DNA from: Oscillospiraceae bacterium
GTDB taxonomy: Bacteria; Bacillota; Clostridia; Oscillospirales; Ruminococcaceae
Assembly (NCBI GenBank): GCA_900770195.1
Contig: CAAGJI010000041.1
Location: 43,719-107,718, forward strand
DNA length: 64,000 nt
Direction of reading: 5' to 3'
The position numbers were made by a program, and so were the translations under genes. Below the pieces are notes generated by a model that was not told where the DNA came from, ran no database searches, and saw only the letters and a program-made list of their open reading frames with translations. Of this stretch, positions 17,912-59,740 are shown piece by piece. Numbering within the stretch: position 1 is the stretch's first letter; every line of letters starts with the position of its first letter.

Positions 17912-17915
17912 ATTA

Positions 17916-19499: not shown

Positions 19500-19550
19500 A
19501 ACAGCCACCTTTTTCTACTTTATAATATGGCTATTATGTGCTTTTTTTCA

Positions 19551-19994: not shown

Positions 19995-20003
19995 ATCTGC
20001 ACC

Positions 20004-30877: not shown

Positions 30878-30894
30878 ATCAAAAAACTTCCTTT

Positions 30895-32592: not shown

Positions 32593-32606
32593 TTTTTCTC
32601 CTTTTT

Positions 32607-32624
32607 GATTAGCATATGCTAATC
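32607..32624. promoter_or_regulatory. Perfect 18-bp palindrome GATTAGCATATGCTAATC in the 5-prime UTR of the 4xFMN gene (candidate operator)
   Basis: The palindrome lies 4 nt upstream of the SD. A half-site GATTAGCATA recurs at 32816-32825. Confidence 0.4.
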
Positions 32625-32700
32625 TATGCATATTTTTTTAGTTTGACAGAAAAAACAGATAAATATATGCGTTAGCGTAAACTAACATAAACATAAAAAT

Positions 32701-36529: not shown

Positions 36530-36542
36530 TATATTTTCCTCC

Positions 36543-39178: not shown

Positions 39179-39466
39179 TTATTCAATTGCCTTAAGCACA
39201 GCATTACGCATATTCTTAATTTCAAGATCCTTTGATTTTCTTATTTTTTCAATCTCTGCGTCTTTTGATTCTCTTATTTCATTGATCTCTTTATTTTTAT
39301 CTCTTGTTAACTCTGCAATTTTATTATTTCTTTCTTCAATAATCTGATTTTTTTTATATTCGAAATTGGCCTCCATTTGATTAAAATCATTTTCAATTTC
39401 ACCAAGAATCTTATCTGCAATTGCTTTTAAATCGGCAATATTTTGCTTGTATGAATTAATATCCAT
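39179..39466 (-). CDS. Coiled-coil protein (95 aa)
   Basis: K/E-rich heptads. RBS GGAGG. TAATG stop/start overlap with the upstream Hsp70-like gene. Confidence 0.55.
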   Translation of the reverse strand: MDINSYKQNIADLKAIADKILGEIENDFNQMEANFEYKKNQIIEERNNKIAELTRDKNKEINEIRESKDAEIEKIRKSKDLEIKNMRNAVLKAIE

Positions 39467-42270: not shown

Positions 42271-43018
42271 ATTTTTTCTCCTCATACTTGTAATAAGTGC
42301 AAATGCCGTCAATTCTTCGTATTTCCGTTTTTTCTTCGTCTGAATCATAACAATAAATACAATATGGCAAACTATTAAAATAACAAATTTCGCCATGTTT
42401 CGATCTATCATTTGTAGATTTCTGATGTGACCCACTGGTAGAAATATGTTCTGATTTTACACTGTTTTCTATATCTTCAGGAACAAAAAAAACTATATTT
42501 GATAAATAGCAAACTATTTTTTTCCCTATTTTCTTCCATTCCTGTTCTTCTTTAAGCATAGACGATTCAAGAATCTTTTGCAATGAATCTCTCATCTCAT
42601 CAATATATATTTCTGTAAGTTCTGCAGATTTTTCATCTGGATCTATTTTATTTTTATCTAACTGCTTAAACATTTTTTCTTTGCATTTATTCGCTCTTTT
42701 AAGTAATAAAGCAACAATCTTTTCTTTATTTTCAGGTAAATTATGACCGTATTCAAATAAAGATTTTAAATCAGGATTTTCGTCTCCAAGCAATTTTTCT
42801 ATTATTGACTTATATTCGTCATCTGTTTTGTCAGGTGGAAAAAGGTATGGATAGGAACTTTTTTGTTTCACAAACATTTCACGTTCATTTTCCTTAAATT
42901 GATACCTGACAATTTCATCTTTATACAAATTATATTTTTTTTGCAAACGAATAATCTCTTTTTTTCTGTCTGATGAATAAGCACTGTATTTTGTCTTTAA
43001 ATCATTTAAATTTAACAT
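42251..43018 (-). CDS. Hypothetical protein (255 aa) with Cys-rich C-terminus
   Basis: C-terminal CYFNSLPYCIYC ... GICTYY, possibly a zinc ribbon. RBS GGAGGG. Confidence 0.5.
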   Translation of the reverse strand: MLNLNDLKTKYSAYSSDRKKEIIRLQKKYNLYKDEIVRYQFKENEREMFVKQKSSYPYLFPPDKTDDEYKSIIEKLLGDENPDLKSLFEYGHNLPENKEKIVALLLKRANKCKEKMFKQLDKNKIDPDEKSAELTEIYIDEMRDSLQKILESSMLKEEQEWKKIGKKIVCYLSNIVFFVPEDIENSVKSEHISTSGSHQKSTNDRSKHGEICYFNSLPYCIYCYDSDEEKTEIRRIDGICTYYKYEEKKYEQEKI

Positions 43019-43036: not shown

Positions 43037-44608
43037 TTAAGATGCTGACACTTTGTCAGAATAAACAAGTTCTGAATCACTGTAAACGTCAACATCAATA
43101 TTAAGAGAGCCATCTTTTTCAAAAATAAATGTCAGTTTTATTTCAGTATTTTCTCTTTTTAAACCTGATGGAAGATTAATTACTGAATATTTTGCAACAT
43201 CTATTCCTTCACTCATAGCACGATTTGCTTTTGGATAAATCTGAATATCGTGTTCGTAAAGCTTCACTTCCAATTTTTCCTGATTATCACTATTAAGATA
43301 AAATATTTTTTCAACTTTTGTAGGAAGTGCAGTATTTATTGGAACTAACGGAATAAATTTATCAGGTATAGGGCCATCCTGTGCTACAGTTCCAAAAACA
43401 CAACTTGTTATATTTGAAATTTCATTAAGCTTATTTTCATTTAAAACAACTGCACCCTTTGAAATAAGTTCTGTTACTTCACCTAAAGTATCATCATCAA
43501 GAGTAATATATTTTTCAAGTTCTTTCTGAACTAAAGGTATATTTGAACTTCCTCCTGCTAAAACAATTCTGTCAATTGCTATGTTGTTATCCTCTGCATA
43601 TTTTAAACTGTCTTTTGTTATATCAATTGAACGTTTTACCAAAGGAGATATTATTTTTTCAATATCATCTACTGTAAATTCATATATATATGGTTCTAAT
43701 CCGTCTTCAGTGCGTATATTCAAAAAGTCATCGTTGCTTTCATATTCTATTTTTACATTTTCAGCACAATCAATAATCCCTCTTAAATTATCACGATACA
43801 TATCATATGGAAGATCACCATCATAAACATCTTCTTTCATAATTCTGTAAAGCCCTTTTGCGTCTTCATCAAATTCCATATCAAGATCAAATTTATCATT
43901 TACTTTCTGAAGAATATCATCTGCTATTGCCAAAGTAACGTTATTACCGCCAAATTCCTTATCACCATTTGTATATATCTGTTCATATTTAATATGCGAG
44001 TCAACTTTTGTTGCTTTCATTATCGAAATATCAAAAGTACCGCCGCCAAAGTCATAAACAAGAATTGTGCATTCATCTTTATCATCTTCAATTGTCTGAT
44101 ATGCAGCTGCCGCTGCTGCTGTTGGTTCAAAAATCAATTCAACATTATTAAGTCCTGCTTCAATTGCAGCATCTTTTATACTTTCTTTTGCTGACGGACT
44201 GAATTTTGCAGGCACAGTAATAACAGCTTTTTCAATAAAACCTTCAGCCGGACCAAACGATTTCATAATTTTGTCCTGAACATTTTTTATTATCTGAGCG
44301 ATAAAATATCCCGTTGCTTTTTTAGGAGTTACTCTTATTCTGCTACCGTCCATAGCTTTTGTAATATATCTCTCATTCTGTTCATTAAGACGGCTTTTAA
44401 AGCTGACAATAGGTTCAACATTGTTTGCAGCAGCAAGTGAAAGAGCTTCTTTTCCTATCACAAATTCATCTTCTGTTTTAAAATATAACGCTGTAGGTAT
44501 GCTTTTACTGCTATCTTTGTCACGCAGGCAAACAATTCTTCCCTTTTTATCTTTGTAAGAAACAACAGTATTTGTAGTTCCGAAATCTATTCCTATGGTT
44601 TGTCCCAT
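43037..44608 (-). CDS. Hsp70-family ATPase (DnaK/HscC-like NBD plus beta-SBD, no lid)
   Basis: IGIDFGTTNTVVSY, ILVYDFGGGTFDISIM, FEPTAAAAAAY and IVLAGGSSNIPLVQ. RBS AAGGAG. Confidence 0.8.
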   Translation of the reverse strand: MGQTIGIDFGTTNTVVSYKDKKGRIVCLRDKDSSKSIPTALYFKTEDEFVIGKEALSLAAANNVEPIVSFKSRLNEQNERYITKAMDGSRIRVTPKKATGYFIAQIIKNVQDKIMKSFGPAEGFIEKAVITVPAKFSPSAKESIKDAAIEAGLNNVELIFEPTAAAAAAYQTIEDDKDECTILVYDFGGGTFDISIMKATKVDSHIKYEQIYTNGDKEFGGNNVTLAIADDILQKVNDKFDLDMEFDEDAKGLYRIMKEDVYDGDLPYDMYRDNLRGIIDCAENVKIEYESNDDFLNIRTEDGLEPYIYEFTVDDIEKIISPLVKRSIDITKDSLKYAEDNNIAIDRIVLAGGSSNIPLVQKELEKYITLDDDTLGEVTELISKGAVVLNENKLNEISNITSCVFGTVAQDGPIPDKFIPLVPINTALPTKVEKIFYLNSDNQEKLEVKLYEHDIQIYPKANRAMSEGIDVAKYSVINLPSGLKRENTEIKLTFIFEKDGSLNIDVDVYSDSELVYSDKVSAS

Positions 44609-44627: not shown

Positions 44628-47600
44628 TTATTTTAAATTTACTTCAACCGGATTCAAAAGATATTTTTCATTATCTATTTCATTTTCTTTTGCGACTGCA
44701 TATTCAATTGCATAAGGTTTTGTTGCTCTTATGTAAATTGCAACATCTTTGTCACTGAAAGTCTGCTCTATTCTGAGATTTTTTCGGATAATACTTGAAT
44801 CAGAAATACTCAATCCGCCGTTAAGTGCAACAGGAAGCGATGTATAATAAATTTCAAATTTATCTACTTTTGCATTTTTGAACTTTATCCATTTGCCATA
44901 TTCAGAACCCATTTTCATTATAACTTTAAACATTTCTCTTTTGCTTATTCCAACAAAATATTTAAATGGTATTTCATCTTCAACATCATTGTCACTTAAC
45001 ACAAGTATCTTTCCGTCTTCACGACTGTCTATAAGCCCGTATACAACACCTGTTTTGCCTGTTGGTCTTGTCAATGAAGTTTCATCTGTTTTCTTTCCTG
45101 CCTGCTTCTGAAGCTTGTCAGCGTCTTCTGTACCTAAAGGTGGCATAAGGAACAAATTTTTCTTAAAATCAACCTTGCATATTTTACAAATATCAGGGAA
45201 ATATTCGTTGATATACTGATTAAATACGTTTTCTACTATCGGAGATTTTCCTGCATTGCCTGCAATGAATATATAAATATTACTGATTTTTGTATTCTTT
45301 GTCTTGAATTTTTCTGAACTGATTGCCTGTAAGAATCCGTGGCAGAAATTATTGATACCCTCTTCGATTTGCTTTGAAAGTATTCCAAGCAAATCAACAT
45401 GAATGTTGTCGTTCGGTGATTCAAGCTTTAATTCTATCTCTTTAAATTCTCCTTTAACATCAAATAAATTAACTTTCATCAAACCTGAATTTAAAGCCTC
45501 AAAAGAAGATTCTATTTCATAAACAGGGAATTTTTCATTATCGCTGCTGTTGTTTTTAAGATATTTGTCAGGTGAAACGCCATACTTTTCACACAATGCT
45601 GTAACATTTTTTTTGTATTCTTCTGATTCAACACCATATTCTTTCTTTACTTCATTTATGTAATAGTCAAGCTCTGCTTTTGCTTTTTCACCTAATTCTT
45701 TTGTTTCACCATCAACCAGATATATGCTTTCTTCCATAAACGGTCTGAGTGCTTCCGCTAACTGCTTTGTATTTCTCTTTGCAATCTGAGTATCTTTTAT
45801 AAGTTCATCGTGTCCATCGAACACGTCGCACTGTACAGGTTTTGTAAATGTTATTCTGTTTTCAAGAAGTACTTTTTTATTTGCCTTAAACACTTCATAT
45901 GCAAGCAATTCAAGAAGATTTTCACCGCCAAGATATTTTGAACCTGCTGCACCAAAATGTTCAATTACATAATCATAATCTTCTTCATCGAAATCATCTT
46001 CATCTGCATATCTCCATGTGCCGTAATCGAAATCAGTTGTACCGCCGCCAAAATCGAAAATACCATACAGAATAGAACTGTCGTCCCCAGGGGCACAGTT
46101 GAATTCTTTCAAAGCACAAACCGCATAACTTGCCGGTTCTCCTGCACCTGCTTTCACTTCAAATTTTTTCATTGTCGCTTCATCATTAAGAACTGTTTCA
46201 GGCAATGATTTTTTCAAACCTTTTGTAAAGCTTTCAAGTATCTTTTCTCTTACCTGCTTTTCGTAAGTTACAGGGAAAGACATAATATAACGCAGGTATA
46301 TTTTATTCGTCATATTATTTATGTATAAGCCGAGGTAGTAAGCATATATTTCGATAGGGTCGAAATCATCTTCTTTTAAATCAACATATTTATAAAGTTT
46401 CTTTTCTGTTTTTGTATTCAGTGATTTAATTGTTTCCGCTGTTTCTTTTGTTGTATTTCCGCACCACTGTTTCAAATTGTAAAAATATGAATAGAAATTA
46501 TCGCTGTCTTTCTTTTCCGTTGTATTTTTAAAATTATAATTTGCTGTATGTGAAACTTTTATATCTTCCCATGATGTGTCAGGTCTTCCTGCTTTAGCTG
46601 AATATGCCTGCATAAAAGATTCTATATCATCAAATTCAATAACAGTCGGGTTTTCGTAATCTTCCTTTTTCGCTTCCTCGCCTAATTTATTTTTACCAAT
46701 ACGCAAAAGGTGAGTAACATCTCTGCCGTTCTGATATCCCACTACTGTTGAACGTGTACCAAAATCTATACCGATAATACCATCATCAAGTACATCTGCA
46801 AGAGGGTTGCGGGCGATAAGTTTTTCAGTAAGGGCAATTTCTGTTCCCTCCTGACTTGATTTTTCCCATAAATCCCAATGACCTGCACCGTCGTCTGTAA
46901 GGATAGTTTCTTCATATGTATCTCTGTCGCATCTTTTTTTGTCAACATTAAGCAGTTCAGATTTTAATTTTTCTGTATCATAATTGTTTTTATATAACCC
47001 TTTTAACGTTTGATAAAACTCACTTTCTTTAACATCATTGTATTTGTAAAGAATTTTACCCTCAGATGCAGTTATTATCTTTTTATCGTACATATCTGCC
47101 AGCATTTTATAAATCCCTTTGAGAGAACTTTTGCTTGGAATAAGTCCGTATTTAATAAAGGTAATCAGCCTTCTTTTTGATAACCCTCTTTTTACAGGAA
47201 TTTTAATGGAATAACTATCACCCCAGCAGTTATAATTTCCATTATGTATATTTAAACGCCTTTCTGAATTTCCGCTATAATAGCTAAAAATGCAATTTAT
47301 CAAATTACCATTTGCATTTTTTACACAATCATCTTTTATAAGCGGATTGGAAGATTTATAGGTGTAGAATAAATCATACGCTTCGGAATAATTCATAGAC
47401 TTTCCTTCGCCTATACCGTCCATTTCATAATCATAACGATCATAAGGACAAACGGCACGTGTTGAGTCTGTTATCAATATATTTTTACTCTGAACAAAAT
47501 ATAATTTTTTATTTTCAATCTTAACCCATTCATTATTTTTAACAATAGAATCCAGATCCTCTTCAACAACATTAATCAGACCTATAAGTAAATCTTTTGC

Positions 47601-47654
47601 TTCTATTTCTTCATCCGTCAGATAAATTTTATCAACGCTTTTTGTTTCTTCCAT
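44628..47654 (-). CDS. Large divergent Hsp70-superfamily ATPase (1008 aa)
   Basis: IIGIDFGTRSTVVGY, GIFDFGGGTTDFDYG and FIAGNAGKSPIV, embedded in long N- and C-terminal extensions. RBS GGAGGT. Confidence 0.75.
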   Translation of the reverse strand: MEETKSVDKIYLTDEEIEAKDLLIGLINVVEEDLDSIVKNNEWVKIENKKLYFVQSKNILITDSTRAVCPYDRYDYEMDGIGEGKSMNYSEAYDLFYTYKSSNPLIKDDCVKNANGNLINCIFSYYSGNSERRLNIHNGNYNCWGDSYSIKIPVKRGLSKRRLITFIKYGLIPSKSSLKGIYKMLADMYDKKIITASEGKILYKYNDVKESEFYQTLKGLYKNNYDTEKLKSELLNVDKKRCDRDTYEETILTDDGAGHWDLWEKSSQEGTEIALTEKLIARNPLADVLDDGIIGIDFGTRSTVVGYQNGRDVTHLLRIGKNKLGEEAKKEDYENPTVIEFDDIESFMQAYSAKAGRPDTSWEDIKVSHTANYNFKNTTEKKDSDNFYSYFYNLKQWCGNTTKETAETIKSLNTKTEKKLYKYVDLKEDDFDPIEIYAYYLGLYINNMTNKIYLRYIMSFPVTYEKQVREKILESFTKGLKKSLPETVLNDEATMKKFEVKAGAGEPASYAVCALKEFNCAPGDDSSILYGIFDFGGGTTDFDYGTWRYADEDDFDEEDYDYVIEHFGAAGSKYLGGENLLELLAYEVFKANKKVLLENRITFTKPVQCDVFDGHDELIKDTQIAKRNTKQLAEALRPFMEESIYLVDGETKELGEKAKAELDYYINEVKKEYGVESEEYKKNVTALCEKYGVSPDKYLKNNSSDNEKFPVYEIESSFEALNSGLMKVNLFDVKGEFKEIELKLESPNDNIHVDLLGILSKQIEEGINNFCHGFLQAISSEKFKTKNTKISNIYIFIAGNAGKSPIVENVFNQYINEYFPDICKICKVDFKKNLFLMPPLGTEDADKLQKQAGKKTDETSLTRPTGKTGVVYGLIDSREDGKILVLSDNDVEDEIPFKYFVGISKREMFKVIMKMGSEYGKWIKFKNAKVDKFEIYYTSLPVALNGGLSISDSSIIRKNLRIEQTFSDKDVAIYIRATKPYAIEYAVAKENEIDNEKYLLNPVEVNLK

Positions 47655-47656
47655 AA

Positions 47657-48331
47657 TTATAATACCTCCACTAACGATTTTTTAACTGTTTTTCCTGATA
47701 CTGTATATTTGTATCCTTTTATTATTACCTTATCTATCATACCTGTATGTTTTTTATTTTTCTCAATATGAAAATTATCGTCCAAATGACAATTATTATC
47801 TATCATAGAATATTCAGGATTCATACGGCACATTATTTCAACAAATTCATTAAATAGATCTGTTACCTGCGGTTTAAGACTGCTGAGTTCATAACTAATG
47901 TAGTCATAATAACTGTTTAAATTCTTTTCGTTTGAAATGCTTGCAATAAACGAAACAGGGTCTTCCAATGATATTTTGACTTTTTCTTTGTATTCTTCAA
48001 GCACTTCACAAGATTTTTTGTATAAGTCAAAAATATTCTTGAAATATTCCTCATAATCAGAAAGCTGATTTTTTGCTGATTCGAGTTCTGATTTACTTTT
48101 TTCAAGTTCTGATTTACTTTTTTCAAGTTCATCTTTTACTGATTTAAGTTCTGATTCTAACTCTTCTATTTTTGGGTTATCATCATTTTTATTTTCGGAC
48201 AAGTATTTTTTTATACGTTCATCAAAACGTTTATCACAAATTTTTTCACAAACTTTTTCACAAACTTTTTCACAAACTTTTTCAATTTCTTCCCTTGTCC
48301 ATTTTTTTGATTTTTCTTCTTCAACTGCCAT
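47657..48331 (-). CDS. Coiled-coil protein (224 aa) with (EKVC)n repeat
   Basis: EKVCEKVCEKVCEKIC motif, then SELEKSKSELESAKNQL heptads. Confidence 0.55.
   Translation of the reverse strand: MAVEEEKSKKWTREEIEKVCEKVCEKVCEKICDKRFDERIKKYLSENKNDDNPKIEELESELKSVKDELEKSKSELEKSKSELESAKNQLSDYEEYFKNIFDLYKKSCEVLEEYKEKVKISLEDPVSFIASISNEKNLNSYYDYISYELSSLKPQVTDLFNEFVEIMCRMNPEYSMIDNNCHLDDNFHIEKNKKHTGMIDKVIIKGYKYTVSGKTVKKSLVEVL
48235..48282. repeat. Four tandem copies of a 12-nt unit (cacaaacttttt), in frame, encoding EKVC
   Basis: The repeat was read directly from the sequence. Unit 1 carries one substitution. Confidence 0.8.
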
Positions 48332-49009
48332 TTATCCAAGATACATTTCTCCGAGTACCATAGTATAATCATACCCAATAAACGGTAAATGTTCTCCTTT
48401 CCACATTATTTCAATATTACGCTTTATATCGCAAAGAAAATACTTTGCTAAATTTACTATGTCAATATCCTTTTCATTTTTTTCTTTATGAATATAGATA
48501 TAAGTAACTTCCGAACTTTTCTGATGATATATATTTATCAGCTTGTAATTCAGTTCAAGAAATTTTTCAAACATATTTTCTCTGTTTCCACTTAACAGAT
48601 ATTCTGAATAACAATTAAGCAATATATACCTTGTTTCATTGCTGCAACTAAGATATAACTCTTTTATTCTGTCATCAAATTCATTGTTCAATATTTTGTT
48701 TTCAATATTCATTGAATAAATATCATATATTGAAAACCCGCTGTTTCTGTCAAACATTGCCTGAAAATGAATAATCAAATTAAAAAAATCTTTATATTCA
48801 GGATTATTTTTATAATCATCAACAAGATTATTATACTTTTCTTCAGAATCAATAAATTTTTTTGAAAAAAACAAGTCAAACAATCGAGGCAACACATTGA
48901 CAAGAGTATTTTTTGTTTCTGTATTCCAGACTTCAACACCCGAAACTATATTTTCAACAGCAAGTTCATACTGTTTCTGACTTGAATAATCATTCCAGAT
49001 ATAACTCAT
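48332..49009 (-). CDS. Hypothetical protein (225 aa)
   Basis: Stop/start adjacency with the downstream gene and an ATGA overlap with the upstream gene. Confidence 0.5.
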   Translation of the reverse strand: MSYIWNDYSSQKQYELAVENIVSGVEVWNTETKNTLVNVLPRLFDLFFSKKFIDSEEKYNNLVDDYKNNPEYKDFFNLIIHFQAMFDRNSGFSIYDIYSMNIENKILNNEFDDRIKELYLSCSNETRYILLNCYSEYLLSGNRENMFEKFLELNYKLINIYHQKSSEVTYIYIHKEKNEKDIDIVNLAKYFLCDIKRNIEIMWKGEHLPFIGYDYTMVLGEMYLG

Positions 49010-50160
49010 ACTTTTACACCTACCCAGAAAAAGTTTGGATAATTATATCTCATAAAAGCAATAAAATAATTAACCCTGTCAATAAAGAAATTATCTATTC
49101 CTGAATCTTCAAAACAAAGATAACAATAATTTTTATTCCTCCTGCTTATCTCTGATAAATCATTATAACTGTAGTTATAATCCCTTGTGTAAGCTTTTAT
49201 CGCTTCTTTAGTATTAGATAAACTAAATCCTTTATATTCATCAGGATAATGATAATATGCATCAACAGCAAGCTTTATATCTGCCTCAGTAAATATATTT
49301 TTCGAAACTACCGAAATTTCATCTTTCAGCTTAGGCGAAAACATATATGATGATTTATTTATTTTATTTTCGTGAATTTCTATTTTCATAAAATCAATAT
49401 CTGAATCTGATTTCACATAAACATATTTATCAGTAATTTTAATCAAATGATAAATATCAAATCTATTTTCAGGTATTATAAATGAATTTTCATCACGGTT
49501 ATATCTGTCAAACTCTTCATCGGCAATAACAGCTTTCACAGACCTCAGTCTTAATTGATTACTTGAAGTTATCGACACATTCCACATAAGTGTTCCCTGA
49601 ACAGCCCCTGATATCTGACTTAAATCATAATTATTTCTTTTTAAATTTACAGGTTCATATTCATTTGTTTTTTCATTCAATTCAAACAATTTAAAAGCAC
49701 GTCTTGAGTACGGTGAATATATATATGGCTGATGTATATTATATAATTTAAACAAATTCGCTATTATTTTTTCCTTTTTAACAAATATATCAGTCTTTTC
49801 AAGCTTGATTTTTTTGCCGTCCTCTGTTTTTTCATAATCATTTACTTTATCATAAGGACAATCAATAAAAATAATATTACTATCATCTTCACTCAAATCC
49901 AGCATAGGATTAAAAATATTGTCGATATTTTCTTTATCTTTTTTTAAAAAAGTAAATATTTGCGGAACTGTATTTTCTTCAGTATTTTGACTGATAACAT
50001 TTTTTTCTATATGCGAAAAAAATTCCTTTTGTCTGTCAATAACAGATTCTGCCAATGTTTTAAAAAATTCTTTCTGATTATCCTTTAAACCATCTGACTT
50101 TTCTAATAACTCTTCTATTTTTATTTTCTTTAAATAACTGTTTTGATTTTTATTATCCAT
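49006..50160 (-). CDS. Hypothetical protein (384 aa)
   Basis: RBS GGTGA. No recognisable motifs. Confidence 0.5.
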   Translation of the reverse strand: MDNKNQNSYLKKIKIEELLEKSDGLKDNQKEFFKTLAESVIDRQKEFFSHIEKNVISQNTEENTVPQIFTFLKKDKENIDNIFNPMLDLSEDDSNIIFIDCPYDKVNDYEKTEDGKKIKLEKTDIFVKKEKIIANLFKLYNIHQPYIYSPYSRRAFKLFELNEKTNEYEPVNLKRNNYDLSQISGAVQGTLMWNVSITSSNQLRLRSVKAVIADEEFDRYNRDENSFIIPENRFDIYHLIKITDKYVYVKSDSDIDFMKIEIHENKINKSSYMFSPKLKDEISVVSKNIFTEADIKLAVDAYYHYPDEYKGFSLSNTKEAIKAYTRDYNYSYNDLSEISRRNKNYCYLCFEDSGIDNFFIDRVNYFIAFMRYNYPNFFWVGVKV

Positions 50161-50172: not shown

Positions 50173-51567
50173 TCATATAATATTAAATTTTCCCGTTGTA
50201 ACATTAACATCTTTTGATGCATTAACTTCTAAACTATTTGCTGTCAACAAAATTTTTCCGTTTCCAATATTGGAAATAATATTTTTGTCTGTAATTTTTA
50301 TTTCTGCTTTTCCGCCAACATTTGAATTAATCTGATTTTTATCAATCACAAATTTATTTTTATCACTGCCTAAAACGATAGAATCATTTTTCAAAGTGAT
50401 ATTATATTCTTTGTTTTTAATATAAATTTCATTTTCATTTATTTCTCCAATATAATCCCATGCTTCAAAAGCGATTTTTTCTTTTTCTATCACACAAGTT
50501 TTATCATATATCTTTATGCTTTTATTGTCAGGATTTTTTATTTTCTCTGCAACAGCTTTTTCTCTTACACAACCATATGCAAAACATTTGTTATTCTGCA
50601 TAATAACTTCTACAATTTCATCAACGTCAGGGACAAAAAATGTTCCGCCATCTTTTGCCGTAAAATTATTAATATACTGAATCCATACCTTTTTATCATT
50701 TATAGAATCTTCAAGTTCTGTAAATTCAACCTGAATCCTTCCAAGATTTTCTTTATCTTTATTATCGGTTACTCTTGCTCTTCCAAGTGAAATTAGATTT
50801 ATCTGATTTTCCGGTTGCTTTTTGTCTTTTAAAATTCTTTCGATTTTGTAATAATACCTTGTATTGTCATCTTTGTATATTACATATGAATAAATCACAA
50901 CATACCATTGACCACTATAATTCACTTTAGTTCCTAATTCTATATACTCTTTATATTCAAACTCGATTATTTCACTATATTCTGTTATACTAATTTTAGC
51001 AGAAATAATATCTTTTTCTTCAAGTGTGAACACACTGTTTAATGAATCATCAATAACAATCTGATTATTTTCACGCTGATTTGAACAAACAAAGAGTTTC
51101 GTATCATTTTCATCTGCAATTCTGTTTGCAAACTGAAAATCCGTTTCATTTTGCTGAACAACCACATCTTCAACTGTTTTTGCAGATATATTTTCTTTTT
51201 TTATTTCAAAAGCAGCTTTATTACTTATCTTTTCAAATATATCTTTATATTTTTTCTCGGGAGACTGATAAACCCTGCTTATTTCAATTGTGTCAGACTC
51301 AATAGAGTCTGACACAACCAAAACATTAACAGCAGCACCTGAATAAGTACTCTGACCTTCAATATTCTTTATTTTACCGCACATAACAAGTTTGCTGTCA
51401 ATATCTGCTTCAACATAAGTATTAGTTTTAACAAACGAAAACAGTTCATAATTATTTTTTAAATCATTCGGAACTATATCAATGTGCATAACGGCATGTT
51501 TACCGCATTCCTTCTCAACTGATATTTTTCTTATTCTTCCTTTTACGGAAAGACTGCTGTTAATCAT
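50173..51567 (-). CDS. VgrG / phage gpD-gpV-like spike protein (short form, 464 aa)
   Basis: gpD/VgrG-like QQNETDFQFANRIADENDTKLFV. gpV OB-fold-like VWIQYINNFTAKDGGTFFVPDVDEIVEVIMQNN. C-terminal beta-helix-like repeats (ITLKNDSIVLGSDKNKFVIDKN...). Confidence 0.6.
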   Translation of the reverse strand: MINSSLSVKGRIRKISVEKECGKHAVMHIDIVPNDLKNNYELFSFVKTNTYVEADIDSKLVMCGKIKNIEGQSTYSGAAVNVLVVSDSIESDTIEISRVYQSPEKKYKDIFEKISNKAAFEIKKENISAKTVEDVVVQQNETDFQFANRIADENDTKLFVCSNQRENNQIVIDDSLNSVFTLEEKDIISAKISITEYSEIIEFEYKEYIELGTKVNYSGQWYVVIYSYVIYKDDNTRYYYKIERILKDKKQPENQINLISLGRARVTDNKDKENLGRIQVEFTELEDSINDKKVWIQYINNFTAKDGGTFFVPDVDEIVEVIMQNNKCFAYGCVREKAVAEKIKNPDNKSIKIYDKTCVIEKEKIAFEAWDYIGEINENEIYIKNKEYNITLKNDSIVLGSDKNKFVIDKNQINSNVGGKAEIKITDKNIISNIGNGKILLTANSLEVNASKDVNVTTGKFNII

Positions 51568-51582
51568 TTTTCACTCCATTTA

Positions 51583-52065
51583 TTATTCTACTTCAATATA
51601 CTGATCATAATTTCCGTTTTTCTGTACAAGATAAAGCTCAAATAAACCGTTATCGTTTTCACCATTTAAATTTTCAGATGGGAAATTTTCAGTAGGAATT
51701 TCATATCCTTCTGTATAATCAATAACAAACATATTTTCTATTTCATAAGATCTAAGCATTTCACTGTTTGAAGTACTTACATATGTTTCAAGTTTTACTT
51801 TTCGATAAATAAGATCCGAATCTGTTTCCTTAGACCAATTTGCAACATCACAAGTAGCTTTCTTGTTATTTGCTGTTATTCTTCCGATTACCCTTATTTC
51901 AGCTCGCACATCATTACTTCTTGCAATTGCGTCATCATTTAATGTGTTTGATTTGTAAGAAGCAGCGATAATATCTTCTTTGCCCTGATGTTCATTTTTC
52001 ATTGAAGATAAAACAATTTCTCCGCCCTTTGAGTCTGTTATTGTTAATCTGTATCCAAGTGCCAT
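51583..52065 (-). CDS. Hcp / tail-tube-like protein (160 aa), tentative
   Basis: Its size, its MA..hhhhI.D.KG N-terminus and its position between a large protein and the spike all fit a tube protein. The call is weak. RBS GGAGG. Confidence 0.4.
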   Translation of the reverse strand: MALGYRLTITDSKGGEIVLSSMKNEHQGKEDIIAASYKSNTLNDDAIARSNDVRAEIRVIGRITANNKKATCDVANWSKETDSDLIYRKVKLETYVSTSNSEMLRSYEIENMFVIDYTEGYEIPTENFPSENLNGENDNGLFELYLVQKNGNYDQYIEVE

Positions 52066-52069
52066 AATA

Positions 52070-54310
52070 TCATTCCTCCGTATTTTCTATTTCTAAATTA
52101 TCAAACTTGTCTTCTTTATCATTGTTAGTAAATTTAACATATGAATAAAGTTTTCCATCTTTTTCTTTACATCCGAATTCTTCCCCATTATAAAGCGGAT
52201 TATTAATGCATCCATCATAACGGTTCCATCTATGATCTGATTTATATTTGTCAAGATTTTTCTTTGAAATTGTTGATTCACCATTTGCAGCTTCATAAAA
52301 AATAAAATCTTTAACTAAAGTTGTAAAAATTCTATTTTCACCCTTAGCCATATTTCTTGCATATTTCACGAATGAATTTTTGACCTTTTCATTGTTATAA
52401 TATCCACAGCAATCGAAAAAGAAACCAAATGGTTCTTCGCTAAGTTCATCAATTAAATCCTTATCATAAGAAAGAATCTCTTCACAATTCATATTTGATA
52501 TAACTTTGTATTTGTTGTCTGAATCCTCAAAATCAAATCTTACACATACCTTAGGAAGATCTTTATTTACATTAAATTTCATCTTTTCAAGCTGCCTGCT
52601 GTCAAGTGACTTTATCACAAGTCCCGCTGCAACATATGGTGCATCTAAATACAGACCGGGATTCTGAATTGTTTCTCCAGCTGCTACCTGTATATCGCCT
52701 GCCTGTATTCCTGACATAAGTGTAAAATTCGGATAAGCAAAGACTGAATATCTGCTATTAATTATGTCTAACTTCTTTTTATATGTATCCAAAACACTCT
52801 TATTCATCTTACTAAAACCGGTTTTTTCACATCCTTTGTAACCAAAAAATGTTGTACACTTTGCTTCAGAAAGAATATCTATTATCTGTTTTGCAGTATC
52901 CAAAGAAATCAGATCCTGTTTTACTTCTGCTTCATCATCATCGTCAAGATTAATATCATCATCTATTTCAAAATCAACATTTTCATTTTGCTCAATATCA
53001 ATAACTTCGTCTTCATCATTTACAGATTCATCAGCATCAGGAATATCAGGAGTATAGAGTCTGCCTGCATTATCTCTGTTAACCAGATCTTCGTCATAAA
53101 TTTGCGGAAGCACAGCAAACCAGATTCTTTTTTCTATATTCCCATTTATGTTGGTCATATATTTTTTAAAATTTTCTTTTATATCTTTATCACTTACTAT
53201 TTCATCTGCTATACAATTAGCAATTATAACAGAACAGTTTCCGCCTGCATTATCGAATAAAGCCTTAACATCTATAATTTTTTCTATTATCTTGTTAATT
53301 GCTTTTAAAAGACTATCCTGTGATGCTTTATAAAAAGCTTTTTGAACCTCATATCTTTTCTTGAGTTTTGGAATGTCTTCACTCGCAACAATACCCGTAT
53401 TATCCGAATATGCTGAGATTACAAGTTTCTTAGTGTAAGAATCACTTTCTGAAGTATTCTCGTTGCCCCCAATGTTAGATTCCAGCAATTTAGTTGCCTG
53501 ATTATTAGCTCTTGTTTCAAGACTTATTGTCTGATTTACATTATTATTAACATCAGTAACTAAAACTTTTTCCTTTACTATATCACCGTCAGAATTATAT
53601 GCCAGTCTGTAAGTATCTCTTTTTGTTGTACTAATTTCTACGGAAGATGACTTTCCATTTTCGTCAGAGTTGATTCCCAGCTTTTTTTGCAAATCCGCAA
53701 CATTTAAACATAAAAGAGCTGTCGGATTATCCCTATATGTTTCGTTGATTTCTGTTATAGTATTTTTTATTTTTTTAGCATAAGATTTCTGTAAAGCCGT
53801 ATTTTTATTATCTTTTGCTTCCAGACACTTCTGAACTAAATAAAGATATTCTCTTCTTTTACTTTTTATCTCTTTAAGCATAGTACTTGGAGATATAAGC
53901 TTTGAAAAACAACTATAGTCAAATTCATAATTTGATTTTCCTGCAACAGCTTTTTTTTCATACATATCAATTGCTGCTTTATAAAAAGCAGTTCTTTCAA
54001 ATTTCATCGGAAGAGCTTCCGGAATATCCGATGGATCTGTTGAATAAACAAAATATCCACCATTATCGTCCTTCTGAAATCCCTGATATAAATCTGGAGC
54101 AAATCTTTCAAGAAAATCATCAAAACTGCTTACTTCAAGTCCTACAACATCAAACTGTTTGTAGTTAAATGTATCTGTATCAGGATCAACAGCACCCTTT
54201 AATGCATTTAAAATTGAAAGAGGTCTCTCTTTGCCAGCAATTTTGGCTGATACTTTATCATTGAATTTTTCAAGGACAAGTACTCGGTTAATACTATCAA
54301 TTTTTCCCAT
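52070..54310 (-). CDS. Large hypothetical protein (746 aa), candidate sheath-like component
   Basis: The true start is the ATG at 54310 with an AAGGAG RBS (ORF-track TTG at 54346). An acidic central linker (DEDEVIDIEQNENVDFEIDDDINLDDDDE) is present. The sheath assignment rests on gene order only. Confidence 0.5.
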   Translation of the reverse strand: MGKIDSINRVLVLEKFNDKVSAKIAGKERPLSILNALKGAVDPDTDTFNYKQFDVVGLEVSSFDDFLERFAPDLYQGFQKDDNGGYFVYSTDPSDIPEALPMKFERTAFYKAAIDMYEKKAVAGKSNYEFDYSCFSKLISPSTMLKEIKSKRREYLYLVQKCLEAKDNKNTALQKSYAKKIKNTITEINETYRDNPTALLCLNVADLQKKLGINSDENGKSSSVEISTTKRDTYRLAYNSDGDIVKEKVLVTDVNNNVNQTISLETRANNQATKLLESNIGGNENTSESDSYTKKLVISAYSDNTGIVASEDIPKLKKRYEVQKAFYKASQDSLLKAINKIIEKIIDVKALFDNAGGNCSVIIANCIADEIVSDKDIKENFKKYMTNINGNIEKRIWFAVLPQIYDEDLVNRDNAGRLYTPDIPDADESVNDEDEVIDIEQNENVDFEIDDDINLDDDDEAEVKQDLISLDTAKQIIDILSEAKCTTFFGYKGCEKTGFSKMNKSVLDTYKKKLDIINSRYSVFAYPNFTLMSGIQAGDIQVAAGETIQNPGLYLDAPYVAAGLVIKSLDSRQLEKMKFNVNKDLPKVCVRFDFEDSDNKYKVISNMNCEEILSYDKDLIDELSEEPFGFFFDCCGYYNNEKVKNSFVKYARNMAKGENRIFTTLVKDFIFYEAANGESTISKKNLDKYKSDHRWNRYDGCINNPLYNGEEFGCKEKDGKLYSYVKFTNNDKEDKFDNLEIENTEE

Positions 54311-54894: not shown

Positions 54895-56559
54895 TTAATT
54901 CTCCAAAATATTATCTATTCTTTCTCTTATTATTCTTACAGGAGATTCATAATACATTTCTCCATTTTCTCTGCCTTCTGCAAATAAAATTATTTTCTGT
55001 TCATTTTTTTCACAGTAATCAGATACAGACTTTTCCACAATAGTATCATTAATAACATATTCCCTGTCTTTATCGATTTTCCACGGAATTACATATTCAC
55101 TATCTGTAAGATTTATAAAATACCTGACATTTTCAGCAAATTTTATAAATGAAATATCGTCTTTTATTTCAAATTCATCTAAATTTGAAAACAATATTTT
55201 GTAATTGTCTTTCTGAAATCTTGTAACATTTAATTTCACAGCATAAAATGAACTTTTTTTGTATTTTTCAAATTTATATATAATAATAATCTTTTTTCTT
55301 TTTGGAACATCAAAAGCAAATTTAAAAGCTTCCTTTGAAACATAAAATGGATAACTTTTTTTATATCCCTTTTCAAAGTCAAGTAATTTGTTCATAATCC
55401 TATTTGAAATATGATTCATATTACTTATAAATCGCTTTCTTTTTTCATCATAATTACTTTTGCGGCAGGAATTTTTTTTGTATCTGGATTCAAGCAAATT
55501 AATCTCATGGTCAACTGCTTCAACATAATTTCTGTAAAATTCTATATCTGATGAAGAAACTTTTTCAAGATACTTGCTGATTTCATCAATAGTTTCAGGT
55601 TCTAATGTATATTTATGTCCTCCCACGTGCCATTGCTGTTTCATCAAATCCATCGCAATATATCCATTTGCCTGCTTGACAGTTCCTTCTTTCCCTTCAA
55701 AGGAATGTGTTGTTGGCAATAAAACACAATTATCCGCATTATTTATATCATATTTGTAAAAATTGGCAAGCTTAACAAGATAAGGATGTTTAGCGAAAAT
55801 CTGATTTCCGGAAATAATATGATGTGCTGCCTTACTCCAATTTCCCTCTGTTGATTCCTCATTCTTTTCTTTATTTTTCTCTATATATGTATCATATTTC
55901 TCTTTATATTGATTTTTAAAATTATTTTCAAGTTCTGACGCAGAATTATTAATAGCCGACGCAGAATGTGAAGCTTTTATATAATCACATTTATCTCTTT
56001 CGCAGCAGTTCTCGTAATCACAAAGAGCGTATTCACAATAAAATTTATAATCTGTTTTTTTCTTATCATCATTTTCAATTTCAGATTTTCTTTCTTTTTT
56101 TAACTGATTTTCTTCATTTAAACTATCTGCATTATGTTCTGAAGTATCGCTGAATGAATCTGAAATTGTTGTTTTATTCCCTATATTTGCAATATCTCCA
56201 GCTTCATAAAGAAAAGAAGGACTTTTTTTCTTTTCATTTATTTTAGACGGAACAGGAGCGGATAATTTTTTAATTTTTGAACCCAGAGGACATAATATAT
56301 AAGATTTATCAGTTAACGCTGACTTTCCCTGTATTAATAATTTTGAACTTGTATTGCACCATAAACCACTTACAACTGCACACGAACAAGGTACATTATT
56401 TTGTTTAGGGCAAATTCCCGGAATTTGAAGTTTCAATGTTGAACAATTTGTCAAAACTTTAGATTTATCGGAAAATGCTTTTGCTAAAGCAACTGAAGCG
56501 GAAAAGGTTGTAGTACTGCACTCGCATTTAAAAATACAATTTTCAGTCAACTCTTTCAT
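54895..56559 (-). CDS. PAAR-like (DUF4280) - AHH nuclease polymorphic toxin
   Basis: N-terminal Cys-rich DUF4280 pattern (KCECS ... IPGICP ... CSCAVVSGLWCNTSSKLLIQGKSALTDKSYILCPLGSKI). AHH signature AAHHIISGNQ ... NCVLLP ... HVGGHKYT. The start is the ATG at 56559 with a GAGGGGAG RBS. The ORF-track extension has none. Confidence 0.7.
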   Translation of the reverse strand: MKELTENCIFKCECSTTTFSASVALAKAFSDKSKVLTNCSTLKLQIPGICPKQNNVPCSCAVVSGLWCNTSSKLLIQGKSALTDKSYILCPLGSKIKKLSAPVPSKINEKKKSPSFLYEAGDIANIGNKTTISDSFSDTSEHNADSLNEENQLKKERKSEIENDDKKKTDYKFYCEYALCDYENCCERDKCDYIKASHSASAINNSASELENNFKNQYKEKYDTYIEKNKEKNEESTEGNWSKAAHHIISGNQIFAKHPYLVKLANFYKYDINNADNCVLLPTTHSFEGKEGTVKQANGYIAMDLMKQQWHVGGHKYTLEPETIDEISKYLEKVSSSDIEFYRNYVEAVDHEINLLESRYKKNSCRKSNYDEKRKRFISNMNHISNRIMNKLLDFEKGYKKSYPFYVSKEAFKFAFDVPKRKKIIIIYKFEKYKKSSFYAVKLNVTRFQKDNYKILFSNLDEFEIKDDISFIKFAENVRYFINLTDSEYVIPWKIDKDREYVINDTIVEKSVSDYCEKNEQKIILFAEGRENGEMYYESPVRIIRERIDNILEN

Positions 56560-56637
56560 ATTTACTCCCCTCACCCAAAACAACAGATATAATAAATTTA
56601 ACGCAAAAATTAATTCAGAGTGTGTTAAAATAAATAT

Positions 56638-56652
56638 AAAAAAAAAAAAAAA
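56638..56652. repeat. Homopolymeric A15/T15 tract in the island operon leader
   Basis: It lies between the island promoter and the first RBS. Confidence 0.9.
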
Positions 56653-56673
56653 CAATGTACACTCCCACAAAAT

Positions 56674-56702
56674 ATTATACACTGTTTTCTTCTAAAAGTC
56701 AA
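56674..56702 (-). promoter_or_regulatory. Sigma-A consensus promoter for the island operon
   Basis: On the minus strand: TTGACT, a 17-bp spacer, then TG-TATAAT. Confidence 0.55.
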
Positions 56703-56971: not shown

Positions 56972-57120
56972 AATTGACTAAATAATATTTTTAGACGATC
57001 TGCTTAATTATGATTTTATATCAACAGATTTTTCCCTGAAATATCTTTTTGAATTATAAAAATAAATCCCTATCAAAATTATGATTTAATCTGCCGGAAA
57101 ACTTTTTATATATAAAAAAA

Positions 57121-57150
57121 ATAAGAGGCAGAAACTGCCTCTTATTTTGT
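57121..57150 (-). terminator. Terminator of the GH26 gene
   Basis: Stem aagaggcag / ctgcctctt with loop aaac. On the minus strand it is followed by TTTTTTTT. Confidence 0.6.
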
Positions 57151-57168: not shown

Positions 57169-59703
57169 TTATTCAACATGAGGAAGTGACTCATATGTAC
57201 CAACAATCAATTTAAGAATTGCAAGAGTATCATCTGAATTAACATCAAGTGCTGTTGCTGCCTTTACATAGTTGCAATCAGCTGCATATAAAGCTGAATC
57301 ATTGAGTGTAGCACTCTTTACAAGATACTTGTTAAGAAGTACAGCATCTGCAATAGTTACCTTACCATCAAGGTTTACATCACCATAAACGATGTCTGTA
57401 GGTCTCTTGAAAGGATTTTCAGCCGTTTCTGATGTTGCTTCGCTTGATTCGCTTGTTGAAGGTTCTGTTACTTCAGTAACTGTTGTGCTTTCAGTTGGTT
57501 CTGTAGCTTCTGTTGTTGAAGTTGTTGGTTCAGCTGTTGTTGCTTCTGTCGGATCTGTAGCTGTTTCTGTTTCAGTAGGATCTGTTCCGGCAGTTGTTGA
57601 TTCCTTGATATAAGCCTTTATGAGCTTGAGGTCAGATAAATCCTTTATTTCTTCCCATGAAGCATCAGCAGCATACCATTTCTGGAACTTACCTTCTTTA
57701 AGCTTCATAACCTCCTTGCCAAGTGCTTGAACTAATTCTGCATCTGCACCTGTTGGTGTTACCTTTGAATCCTTAACTGTAACTGTTTCACCGTTTGCAT
57801 CTGTATAAGTTACATTTGTTGGATTTGCAAGGTTAATTGTTGCTGTTGAAGTACCTGACTTCTTTGTTTCCCACTGGTAACCTACCCAGTAATCAACATC
57901 ATTATATTTAACATTGAAACATGCACCACCGCATGTATAACCCATATTTGAAGGTGTTTCTATATCAAGATAGAGTTTTTCACCCATTGGTTTACTGAAT
58001 GAGAATGCTGTTCCGTCATCTTCTTCAACAAGTTTAGCGTCAACGTCTTTTATTTCTGTTGGAGCTTCTGTTGGTTTTGATTCTGTTGGTTCTTTTGTTT
58101 CTGTAACAAATTCGCCATCGCCTGAATAAAGATTCTTTGGAAGTTCCTCTAAAGTAATGCAGTAGTCACTCTGATACATTTCTTTAAGGTCTTCTTTTCT
58201 GTTGAATATTTCATTGGAAACAAAATTAATGTTGTCGCTTCCGCCATCATACCATGGGCAGAAGTAAAGCCATGTTGCATGTTCTGTCTGAAGATTTGAA
58301 AGTGTTGAAATACAGTCACATTCTGCAAGTGCAACCATCTTGCTCTTATTTGTAAGATTTACAAGACTCCAATATGTTTTACCTGCTGCTGTATCGTCAT
58401 GTTCAAGTGATGCCTGCCAGTTGTTTTCAGCGAGATACTTTGTACAGCTGTACTTATCATATCCAACGAGGTCAACATATTCATCGCCAGGATACCAGTC
58501 ACCTGATGTTGCGTAGTCATAACCATTCCATTCCCAAATCAGGTTATGAATACCATAATCTTCTGTAAGAGTTTTATATGTAAGTTTCCAGAGTTCTTTA
58601 TAAACCTTAGAACCGCCAGTTCCCCACCAGAACCATGAGCCCTGTTCACCGCCGCCGCCTTCAGCTTCGTGAAGAGGTCTGAATATAAGTGGAACACCTG
58701 CATCCTGAATCTTAAGAAGTGATTCTGAAAGCTTCTTGAGGCAAGCCATATAATATTCATTTTCTTTTGTTCCTTCAACAAGAACATTTTCTGTTTTAAA
58801 TGAACTTACTGTGCCTGTTTTAGTGCTGTTCCAGCCTTCATATGTAGCACTGCCCCAGTCAATCTTGTCACCAAGTTTGTAGCTGTCAAAATCTTTTGGA
58901 ACTGTAAGATGCCATGATGCTGTTGCAATACCTGCTGAACCGTACTGATTTGCACTTGTACACCACTTAATTATTCTGTCTGTTGTGCCATCTTCACTTC
59001 CATAAAGAATATTTGCTTCATTAAGGAAGTCAAAGCCTCTGATTGCAGGAGTTTCGCCTGATAAATTTCTGATATATTCAAATTCAGTTTCAAGGTCATG
59101 TGGACCATACTTATATATTTCCTGTTGACCTGAAATTGTATGTTTTCCGTAAACAGAAGCCATATAACTCATAAGAGATTTTGCTTCTTTTGTTGCCTTT
59201 GAGTCAGAAAGTGAAGCATTACCTGTTACTGTATCGTAAACCTTTGGTGCAACTTCAATATAGTCAAATTTTGTCCAACCCCATGAAGATGTTATTTTAA
59301 TCGTATTTTCACCTGCATTGAGTTTTACAGTTGTTGCAGTAAATGGTGTATATGTTCCTGTACCTTCTGAAAAAGACATACTTCCGCCTGAAACGTCATT
59401 AACATAGATATTATTCTGTTTTGCACCGCCAACACCTTCAGCAGCCATTATAATATCGTACATTCCTTCTTTTTCAACGCTTACTTTCATTGTGATAGTT
59501 CCATTGTCTTTCATATAAAGAACTGAACCACCACTTGCTGCTGAATCAGCTTCTTTTTCAACTTTTCCTGAAAAATCAGCATCTTCAAATTCATATCTTT
59601 TTGTTTCATCAGCTGAACTTGTAAATGATGTAAATGTCATACAACTGGCTGAAATGACCAATGCAGAAACCGCTGCAACTGATCTTCTAAAATTAAACTT
59701 CAT
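57169..59703 (-). CDS. Cellulosomal GH26 beta-mannanase with N-terminal CBM6/35-like module, Thr/Pro/Glu linker and type I dockerin
   Basis: Signal peptide. YEFEDADFSG ... FDYIEV carbohydrate-binding module. GH26 catalytic segments (IFRPLHEAEGG ... WFWWG). C-terminal dockerin (GDVNLDGKVTIADAVL ... NSDDTLAILK). RBS GGAGGG at the ATG at 59703. Confidence 0.85.
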   Translation of the reverse strand: MKFNFRRSVAAVSALVISASCMTFTSFTSSADETKRYEFEDADFSGKVEKEADSAASGGSVLYMKDNGTITMKVSVEKEGMYDIIMAAEGVGGAKQNNIYVNDVSGGSMSFSEGTGTYTPFTATTVKLNAGENTIKITSSWGWTKFDYIEVAPKVYDTVTGNASLSDSKATKEAKSLMSYMASVYGKHTISGQQEIYKYGPHDLETEFEYIRNLSGETPAIRGFDFLNEANILYGSEDGTTDRIIKWCTSANQYGSAGIATASWHLTVPKDFDSYKLGDKIDWGSATYEGWNSTKTGTVSSFKTENVLVEGTKENEYYMACLKKLSESLLKIQDAGVPLIFRPLHEAEGGGGEQGSWFWWGTGGSKVYKELWKLTYKTLTEDYGIHNLIWEWNGYDYATSGDWYPGDEYVDLVGYDKYSCTKYLAENNWQASLEHDDTAAGKTYWSLVNLTNKSKMVALAECDCISTLSNLQTEHATWLYFCPWYDGGSDNINFVSNEIFNRKEDLKEMYQSDYCITLEELPKNLYSGDGEFVTETKEPTESKPTEAPTEIKDVDAKLVEEDDGTAFSFSKPMGEKLYLDIETPSNMGYTCGGACFNVKYNDVDYWVGYQWETKKSGTSTATINLANPTNVTYTDANGETVTVKDSKVTPTGADAELVQALGKEVMKLKEGKFQKWYAADASWEEIKDLSDLKLIKAYIKESTTAGTDPTETETATDPTEATTAEPTTSTTEATEPTESTTVTEVTEPSTSESSEATSETAENPFKRPTDIVYGDVNLDGKVTIADAVLLNKYLVKSATLNDSALYAADCNYVKAATALDVNSDDTLAILKLIVGTYESLPHVE

Positions 59704-59740
59704 TTCAAAGCCCTCCATCTTAAGCTAATATTCCAATACC

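Follow-up and report, generated by a model that had tools for sequence, protein, structure and literature searches.

An operon with an Hsp70 module that probably encodes a contractile injection system in an Oscillospiraceae bacterium

A 64,000-nucleotide stretch of an Oscillospiraceae bacterium (GenBank assembly GCA_900770195.1, contig CAAGJI010000041.1, positions 43,719 to 107,718 of the forward strand), here called the window and numbered from its first letter, carries a 23.9-kb minus-strand operon of 18 open reading frames (ORFs) at 32835-56702. The operon holds a sheath-fold protein, a protein with the Hcp/tube fold and a VgrG-type spike. We consider it likely that the operon represents a previously uncharacterized lineage of contractile injection system (CIS) in monoderm Oscillospiraceae of the Ruminococcus type, and that its Hsp70 module is an integral accessory, the role of which we infer. 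The original prediction, read from the letters of the window, had seen in three of these genes a novel or minimal module of the contractile-injection type. That interpretation is supported, and the operon is larger than the trio on which it was built.

CISs are well characterized as type VI secretion systems (T6SS) in Gram-negative bacteria, as released particles (extracellular CIS, or eCIS, and tailocins) and in Streptomyces. Whether a T6SS-like weapon exists in the Gram-positive anaerobes of the gut and rumen is an open question. The locus supplies a parts list that can be tested, consisting of a sheath, a tube, a spike, a nuclease tip, an immunity protein and two candidate baseplate proteins. 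A further hypothesis to which it leads, an unexpected one, is that a contractile sheath is serviced by ATPases of the Hsp70 family.

The contractile core

The original prediction rested on three consecutive minus-strand ORFs, and these lie where it had placed them:

52070-54310, minus strand: long contractile-sheath-like protein, 746 amino acids (aa), with a large helical insertion at about residues 106-355 and an acidic disordered loop at about residues 410-465
51583-52065, minus strand: protein with the Hcp/tail-tube fold, 160 aa
50173-51567, minus strand: compact VgrG-type spike, 464 aa, with a partial gp27/gpD-like N-terminal region, a gp5 OB-fold and a short repetitive C terminus

We take the three to be real genes because all of them belong to conserved families. 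The sheath ORF is 746 aa long when read from its ATG and 758 aa when extended to a TTG, up to 54346, and the database contains a protein of the shorter length, 746 aa, with 100% identity to it.

The 464-aa protein had been called VgrG-like, and the Pfam profile Phage_base_V matches its residues 263-326 above the cut-off (E=7.8e-11). The Phage_GPD profile also matches, at residues 96-178, with an E value (5.7e-5) that falls below the cut-off. In NCBIfam, the protein is matched by VgrG_rel (3.8e-11) and by the TssI/VgrG model TIGR03361 (1.5e-5, residues 27-207), both far below the curated cut-offs, and its C terminus weakly matches the Francisella TssI model (4.6e-3, residues 348-414). The only sequence match in the PDB is the Gp5/Vgr spike of the Streptomyces coelicolor CIS (9gtr_q, E=0.052). 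Of the two strings quoted in the prediction, the OB-fold segment VWIQY...GGTFFVPDVDEIVEV stands exactly as quoted at residue 294; the gpD motif, found at residue 138, exceeds the quoted form by one residue and ends in E.....F rather than E....F. Thus, the gp27-like and gp5 OB-fold domains of a VgrG (TssI) spike are both found, and the protein appears from its sequence to be a compact, divergent member of that type.

The other two proteins are silent to sequence profiles. Neither the 746-aa nor the 160-aa protein had a match in Pfam, NCBIfam, PHROGs, PADLOC or the PDB (phmmer and hmmsearch), or when 34 individual family members were searched against Pfam, and comparison of structures alone was informative. 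The 160-aa protein has the Hcp/tube fold and belongs with the Hcp (TssD) tubes, as its earlier description as Hcp-like had it. The 746-aa protein had been placed in the position normally held by sheath subunits. Its fold is indeed that of a sheath, but it is a single chain, and the split, two-subunit TssB/TssC sheath is not found. An exhaustive profile search collected 244 clusters of the sheath family at 50% identity, of which 206 had E<=1e-10. With few exceptions the full-length members measure 700-780 aa, and the family is therefore a distinct one of long sheaths.

A toxin at the spike tip and its immunity protein

The operon opens with two genes upstream of the sheath:

54895-56559, minus strand: spike-tip toxin, 554 aa, with an N-terminal DUF4280 (PAAR-like) domain, a central Tox-AHH (HNH/EndoVII) nuclease domain and a conserved C-terminal region of about 230 aa
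54315-54893, minus strand: Imm11 immunity protein, 192 aa (Pfam Imm11, E=3.7e-8)

In Pfam, the toxin matches DUF4280 above the cut-off (E=5.8e-6) and AHH just below it (E=2.7e-4). DUF4280 is treated as PAAR-like in the sections of a 2021 PAAR survey considered here (PMC8651086). The AHH signature residues HH, N, H, H and Y are invariant in six orthologs and agree with the published signature (PMC3482391), and the nuclease active site is, to judge from these residues, intact. The same source documents Tox-AHH with Imm11 as a toxin-immunity pairing. The protein thus has the parts of a polymorphic toxin (an N-terminal trafficking domain, a toxin domain and an adjacent cognate immunity gene), with the AHH domain central rather than C terminal; the conserved residues after it (54895-55600) occur in most orthologs and are missing in one locus (L007). 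The cassette itself is not polymorphic. Seven loci contain the complete toxin, and in these it is orthologous from end to end at 26-50% identity; Imm11 stands directly after it in every locus that reaches that position. The toxin is therefore a fixed component.

One operon from toxin to Hsp70

The 18 ORFs are arranged as follows: the DUF4280-AHH toxin, Imm11, sheath, tube, VgrG, a 384-aa protein, a 225-aa protein, a 224-aa coiled-coil protein, a 1008-aa protein, Hsp70-1, a 255-aa protein, a coiled-coil protein of about 427 aa, Hsp70-2, two short coiled-coil ORFs, an Hsp70-VWA fusion, a 965-aa protein and a 277-aa protein. Distances between neighboring genes range from -35 to +19 nucleotides (nt), and one strong promoter-like site was found in the operon. 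The G+C fraction is 0.298, compared with 0.345 and 0.373 in the flanks. We conclude from the spacing, the one promoter-like site and the deviating composition that the 18 ORFs form a single operon. A terminator of the upstream gene (57118-57148, 14-bp stem) divides that neighbor from the operon. The promoter is a candidate, recognized by its match to consensus:

56674-56702, minus strand: sigma-70-like promoter TTGACT-17-TATAAT, 11 of 12 consensus positions matched, upstream of the first (toxin) gene

The promoter-like site falls inside an N-terminal extension that gene calling from a GTG gives the toxin ORF, and the true toxin start is thus probably the ATG at 56559.

The Hsp70 module

The Hsp70 genes that had been reported downstream of the trio are real, with Pfam HSP70 matches of 1e-47, 7e-24 and 1e-83. 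The conserved set consists of three core proteins (one fused to a VWA domain) and up to two giant ones, three to five in all, and the window encodes five Hsp70-superfamily proteins:

44628-47654, minus strand: optional giant protein of 1008 aa that has an Hsp70-type ATPase domain at its center (97.4% by hhalign with the Hsp70-1 family, E=1e-11, 214 columns)
43037-44608, minus strand: Hsp70-1, 523 aa (HSP70 E=1.1e-47), kept in every locus with enough downstream sequence
39466-40974, minus strand: Hsp70-2, 502 aa (HSP70 E=7e-24, residues 71-390), with a nucleotide-binding domain and an uncharacterized C-terminal region
36543-38630, minus strand: DnaK-type Hsp70-VWA fusion, 695 aa (HSP70 E=1e-83, residues 6-530; VWA E=1.1e-20, residues 521-687)
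33680-36577, minus strand: giant protein of 965 aa that has an Hsp70-type ATPase domain at its center (98.2% by hhalign with the Hsp70-1 family, E=6e-14, 401 columns)

The actin-fold nucleotide-binding domain is found in all five, each with readable DxGTT and DxGGGT motifs. In the 1008-aa protein, which alone had no Pfam or PDB match, the phosphate-1 and phosphate-2 motifs read GIDFGT and FDFGGGTTD. The 965-aa protein alone likewise had no sequence match in the PDB. Hsp70-2 is related to Hsp70-1 (hhalign 99.9%). The fusion protein has both the nucleotide-binding and the beta-sandwich substrate-binding domains and matches DnaK (2v7y, E=3.5e-64) over residues 5-505.

Candidate baseplate proteins

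Two conserved genes lie directly downstream of the spike:

49006-50160, minus strand: conserved protein outside known families, 384 aa, candidate baseplate or core component
48332-49009, minus strand: conserved protein outside known families, 225 aa, candidate baseplate or core component

Neither had a match in Pfam, NCBIfam, PHROGs, PADLOC or PDB sequences. The two genes share 4 nt, where the 384-aa gene ends and the 225-aa gene begins. The 384-aa protein follows VgrG in all loci reaching that position, and the position of the 225-aa protein is conserved across loci as well. Moreover, the two travel with sheath and spike even in a rearranged variant of the locus (L005, described below), in which a 426-aa protein beside the sheath homolog is homologous to the 384-aa protein (hhalign 91%, E=1e-6, 344 columns) and a 222-aa protein is homologous to the 225-aa protein (hhalign 96%, E=2e-9, 194 columns). 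They are the likeliest substitute for a baseplate.

Conservation of the locus

Word-indexed searches returned close relatives only, and those with names were Oscillospiraceae or Ruminococcus metagenome-assembled genomes. A scan of GTDB with the close sheath alignment (A1) found one locus only; pattern seeding of this kind reaches close relatives alone, and the result is no measure of rarity. Gene contexts were recovered for relatives at 25-60% identity (L001/L002, L003, L004, L006-L009 and L012-L015). Every locus keeps, as far as it reaches, the order toxin, Imm11, sheath, tube, VgrG, protein of about 400 aa, protein of about 225 aa, an optional pair of coiled-coil and giant Hsp70-like proteins, and Hsp70-1. 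The run from toxin through Hsp70 is preserved in L001/L002, L003, L004, L007, L008, L012 and L015, and the flanking genes differ. Three loci (L001, L004 and L008) continue with a gene of about 220-265 aa, a gene of about 410-455 aa and a conserved Hsp70-2; in L001 and L004, a gene of about 300 aa comes next, together with the Hsp70-VWA fusion, which also occurs in L002. The optional 224-aa and 1008-aa pair is present in the window, L003, L006, L007, L012 and L015 and absent in L001/L002, L004 and L008.

The rearranged variant, L005, is a more distant locus on a Logan contig (SRR33454253, positions 1836-21398). An 892-aa homolog of the 965-aa protein (33% identical) is encoded there near a 684-aa distant sheath homolog. 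The homologs of the 384-aa and 225-aa proteins are present as well, along with a pentapeptide-repeat protein and two genes each for VgrG and DUF4280. A classical Hsp70 was not in view within 1836-21398, and no tube could be recognized by sequence among the ORFs of L005.

Might the operon be two unrelated neighbors, a minimal spike, tube, sheath and toxin module beside a separate chaperone or conflict operon of Hsp70/VWA type? Hsp70-VWA proteins could have roles elsewhere, the link to the CIS genes comes here from gene context, and the optional 224-aa and 1008-aa genes show that the region is modular. The genes are, however, translationally tight in one operon, and wherever a locus extends far enough, its CIS genes are followed by Hsp70 genes, including cases in which sheath and VgrG have fallen to 25-30% identity and the flanks differ. 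Finally, an Hsp70-domain protein resembling the 965-aa one again lies near a sheath homolog in L005. We consider two separate systems very unlikely.

Missing parts and competing explanations

The original prediction had found no canonical T6SS or eCIS parts, and the profile searches agree. Among the operon ORFs, Pfam, NCBIfam, PHROGs and PADLOC returned no TssB, TssC, TssE, TssF, TssG, TssK, ClpV, tape measure or AAA+ protein. For TssE, TssF, TssG and TssK, none of the 18 ORFs had a profile match, in sequence tests of little power (the tube family was also silent against P2 FII). Baseplate proteins like gp25 and gp6/gp7 (Afp9, Afp11 and Afp12) were undetected by Pfam, NCBIfam, PHROGs and PDB sequences. 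Comparison of the family profiles by hhalign with the phage P2 proteins FI, FII, W, J, I, D, U, V, R, S and X was without signal in every pairing, even for the tube family, and as a test of baseplate homology for the 384-aa and 225-aa proteins it was without power. An absent baseplate thus means none detectable at the level of sequence. The TssJ/L/M membrane complex had no Pfam or NCBIfam match and no transmembrane (TM)-like segment to represent it, and TssA was not detected among the operon ORFs. No AAA+ domain of ClpV (TssH) occurs anywhere in the operon, where Hsp70-family ATPases are found instead. Pfam, NCBIfam and PHROGs also gave no tape measure, tail fiber, cap or Afp15-type AAA+ protein, and the coiled-coil proteins had no tape-measure profile match.

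Neither a TM-like segment nor a signal peptide was seen in any credible ORF of the operon, and all of the proteins are predicted to be soluble. Apparent TM helices in ORFs of 595 aa and 482 aa were rejected as artifacts of upstream GTG starts (56560-56682 and 42271-42435, respectively). Translation most probably starts at the ATGs at 56559 and 42270, because the promoter-like site lies inside one extension, the other overlaps its neighbor by 185 nt, and ortholog lengths fit the shorter forms.

The operon could also be a decaying prophage tail or an R-type tailocin, with its other parts diverged beyond recognition or lost. We searched 50,697 phage genomes and IMG/VR by tblastn, and PLSDB plasmids, and found no match; prophage- and plasmid-borne readings were rejected on that account. 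Moreover, no phage gene was detectable among the operon ORFs, including a tape measure, tail fiber, lysis cassette or integrase. The ORFs are intact and conserved and have no phage genes as neighbors, which also tells against such a remnant. The architecture is stable across deep divergence, which speaks for selection rather than decay, and tailocins kill by depolarization, without pairs of PAAR toxin and immunity protein. Of the explanations weighed here, a phage remnant is the least probable.

Several observations weigh against the reading as a new CIS lineage. A sheath initiator like gp25/TssE, a wedge like gp6/gp7, a tube terminator or cap, a tape measure, a tail fiber and a membrane anchor all went undetected by sequence. 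With no TM segment or signal peptide, there is no evident route by which the machine would dock to, or fire through, a Gram-positive wall. A fixed, nonpolymorphic toxin is atypical for interbacterial weapons. No DnaJ or GrpE had a Pfam match, and no HPD motif occurs, in any protein of the cluster; their place could be taken by housekeeping DnaJ and GrpE from genes elsewhere in the genome. Finally, what is known of the system here comes from its genes.

Some of these observations fit the main alternative, an intracellular device for cell death or defense. Perhaps an Hsp70/VWA sensor triggers firing, or release of the toxin, in the producer or into its own membrane, in a suicide or stress response that resembles abortive infection or developmental death, as has been proposed for the cytoplasmic CIS of Streptomyces. 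The operon has nothing that spans the envelope, no TM segment and no signal peptide; its toxin and Imm11 do not vary, and the host is monoderm with a thick wall. Moreover, the sole PDB sequence match of the spike is from the S. coelicolor CIS, and cytoplasmic CISs that cause death under stress have published precedent, at least in the portions of the two reports drawn on here (10.1101/2024.06.25.600559 and PMC10286715). We note also that the Hsp70 proteins weakly match a candidate-defense Hsp70 model in PADLOC (PDC-M61B, best E=1.5e-9). Those matches, however, span the generic ATPase domain only, and no other defense signature was seen. A PAAR-like nuclease tip with an immunity protein is the classic architecture for delivery into another cell, and the Streptomyces CIS clusters have recognizable baseplate genes and the membrane adaptor CisA, neither of which is seen here. 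We regard a device turned on its own producer as unlikely, and favor a new CIS lineage with an integral Hsp70 module.

Relation to known systems

The operon is most like the T6SS, especially that of Francisella (subtype ii), in having a sheath, an Hcp-fold tube, a VgrG, a PAAR-like toxin tip and an adjacent immunity gene, and in that the components are all cytoplasmic. The Francisella sheath is recycled by the general chaperone ClpB, no dedicated ClpV being known there, and thus provides a precedent for substitution of one chaperone by another. The likeness extends to details of the spike, as the VgrG C terminus weakly resembles Francisella TssI and the tip is of the DUF4280 type, like the Francisella IglG cited in the sections of the PAAR survey considered here (PMC8651086). 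Unlike the operon, the canonical T6SS has a split sheath, a membrane complex and ClpV.

The eCISs (Afp, PVC and AlgoCIS) differ from the operon in their gp25-, gp6- and gp7-like baseplate, tape measure, tail fiber, cap and Afp15-type AAA+ protein, none of which is detectable in it. Here, moreover, the effector is fused to the tip rather than loaded separately as cargo, and Hsp70 genes are present. We know of no Hsp70 genes in Streptomyces CIS clusters. The Streptomyces system (CIS-Sc) is eCIS-like, with recognizable baseplate proteins in its solved structures where the operon has none detectable, and it is not known to have a PAAR-fused nuclease with an immunity pair. The report of its membrane adaptor CisA, as far as it is cited here, is 10.1101/2024.06.25.600559.

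A published hint is in the 2021 PAAR survey (PMC8651086). [quoted passage not shown] The operon shows the same pairing of DUF4280 and VgrG; the sheath, the tube, the conserved pair of 384-aa and 225-aa proteins and the link to Hsp70 are not identified in those sections. A literature search that reached few of the subscription journals turned up no account of the sheath, the tube or the association with Hsp70, and no work that combines Hsp70, vWA and VgrG.

A proposed mechanism

How might the parts work together? A VgrG trimer, capped by the PAAR-like toxin, would nucleate a tube of the 160-aa protein inside the 746-aa sheath, and the 384-aa and 225-aa proteins would stand in for the baseplate. 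Contraction of the sheath would drive the nuclease-tipped spike through a membrane, and Imm11 would shield the producer and its kin. ClpV or ClpB recycles the sheaths of the T6SS, and Hsp70 drives the uncoating of clathrin. By analogy with both, the Hsp70 module and its coiled-coil partners would most likely assemble, remodel or disassemble the sheath, the job of ClpV/ClpB in the T6SS. Hsp70 may dock at the family-specific helical insertion of the sheath and at its acidic loop. The particle may lie unattached in the cytoplasm, as the Streptomyces CIS does, and come into action upon lysis or stress.

If the operon does encode a CIS of this kind, contact-dependent antagonism or CIS-mediated cell death would extend to fiber-degrading Oscillospiraceae, and a new class of Hsp70 client and co-factor would come to light. 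The stretch from the toxin through the 225-aa gene, about 8 kb, would also be an unusually small CIS chassis for the engineering of protein delivery. We speculate further that the system is the Gram-positive counterpart of the T6SS, a reusable cytoplasmic weapon of gut and rumen Clostridia, with baseplate families unrelated in sequence to gp25, gp6 and gp7 and a cycle driven by dedicated Hsp70 proteins rather than ClpV/ClpB. This bolder idea is possible, and we hold it only tentatively. Were it true, contractile machines would have a new solution to energy supply and recycling, and Hsp70 would have a new cellular job.

Other genes of the operon and its neighborhood

The remaining ORFs of the operon lie among and after the Hsp70 genes:

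47657-48331, minus strand: coiled-coil protein, 224 aa, optional, with an N-terminal (EKVC)x3-4 repeat; Pfam gave coiled-coil-type noise only
42251-43018, minus strand: protein of 255 aa without a Pfam match; relatives are genes of 222-264 aa at the same position
40987-42270, minus strand: coiled-coil protein of about 427 aa when read from the ATG at 42270, with coiled-coil-type Pfam matches only; relatives are 409-455 aa
38650-39466, minus strand: two coiled-coil ORFs in different frames, of 95 aa (39179-39466) and 169 aa (38650-39159); relatives have one gene of 295-325 aa
32835-33668, minus strand: protein of 277 aa, the last gene of the operon, on the same strand 11 nt after the 965-aa gene, a putative member of the system

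The 224-aa protein carries the cysteine repeat EKVCEKVCEKVCEKIC at its N terminus (48230-48331) and is the constant companion of the 1008-aa Hsp70-like protein. The 255-aa protein has positional counterparts in L001, L003, L004, L007 and L008, with sequence similarity only to L003 and L012. The GTG at 42435 that was called as the start of the longer coiled-coil gene is probably spurious, given its 185-nt overlap with the preceding gene and a false hydrophobic N terminus. The division into short coiled-coil ORFs of 95 aa and 169 aa may reflect a frameshift, a pseudogene or an error in assembly, or it may be genuine. The 277-aa protein had no match in Pfam, NCBIfam, PHROGs or PADLOC, and its gene lies beyond the ends of the related loci.

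Upstream of the operon lies a minus-strand gene (57169-59718) for a GH26-CBM35-dockerin protein, a mannanase of the cellulosome type. This points to a fiber-degrading, cellulosome-bearing, Ruminococcus-like host. Downstream, on the same strand (29568-32631), are genes for two FMN_bind proteins, one of 578 aa with four such domains and one of 144 aa, and for a 4Fe-4S membrane protein that resembles polyferredoxin. These may form an extracytoplasmic, flavin-based electron-transfer module.

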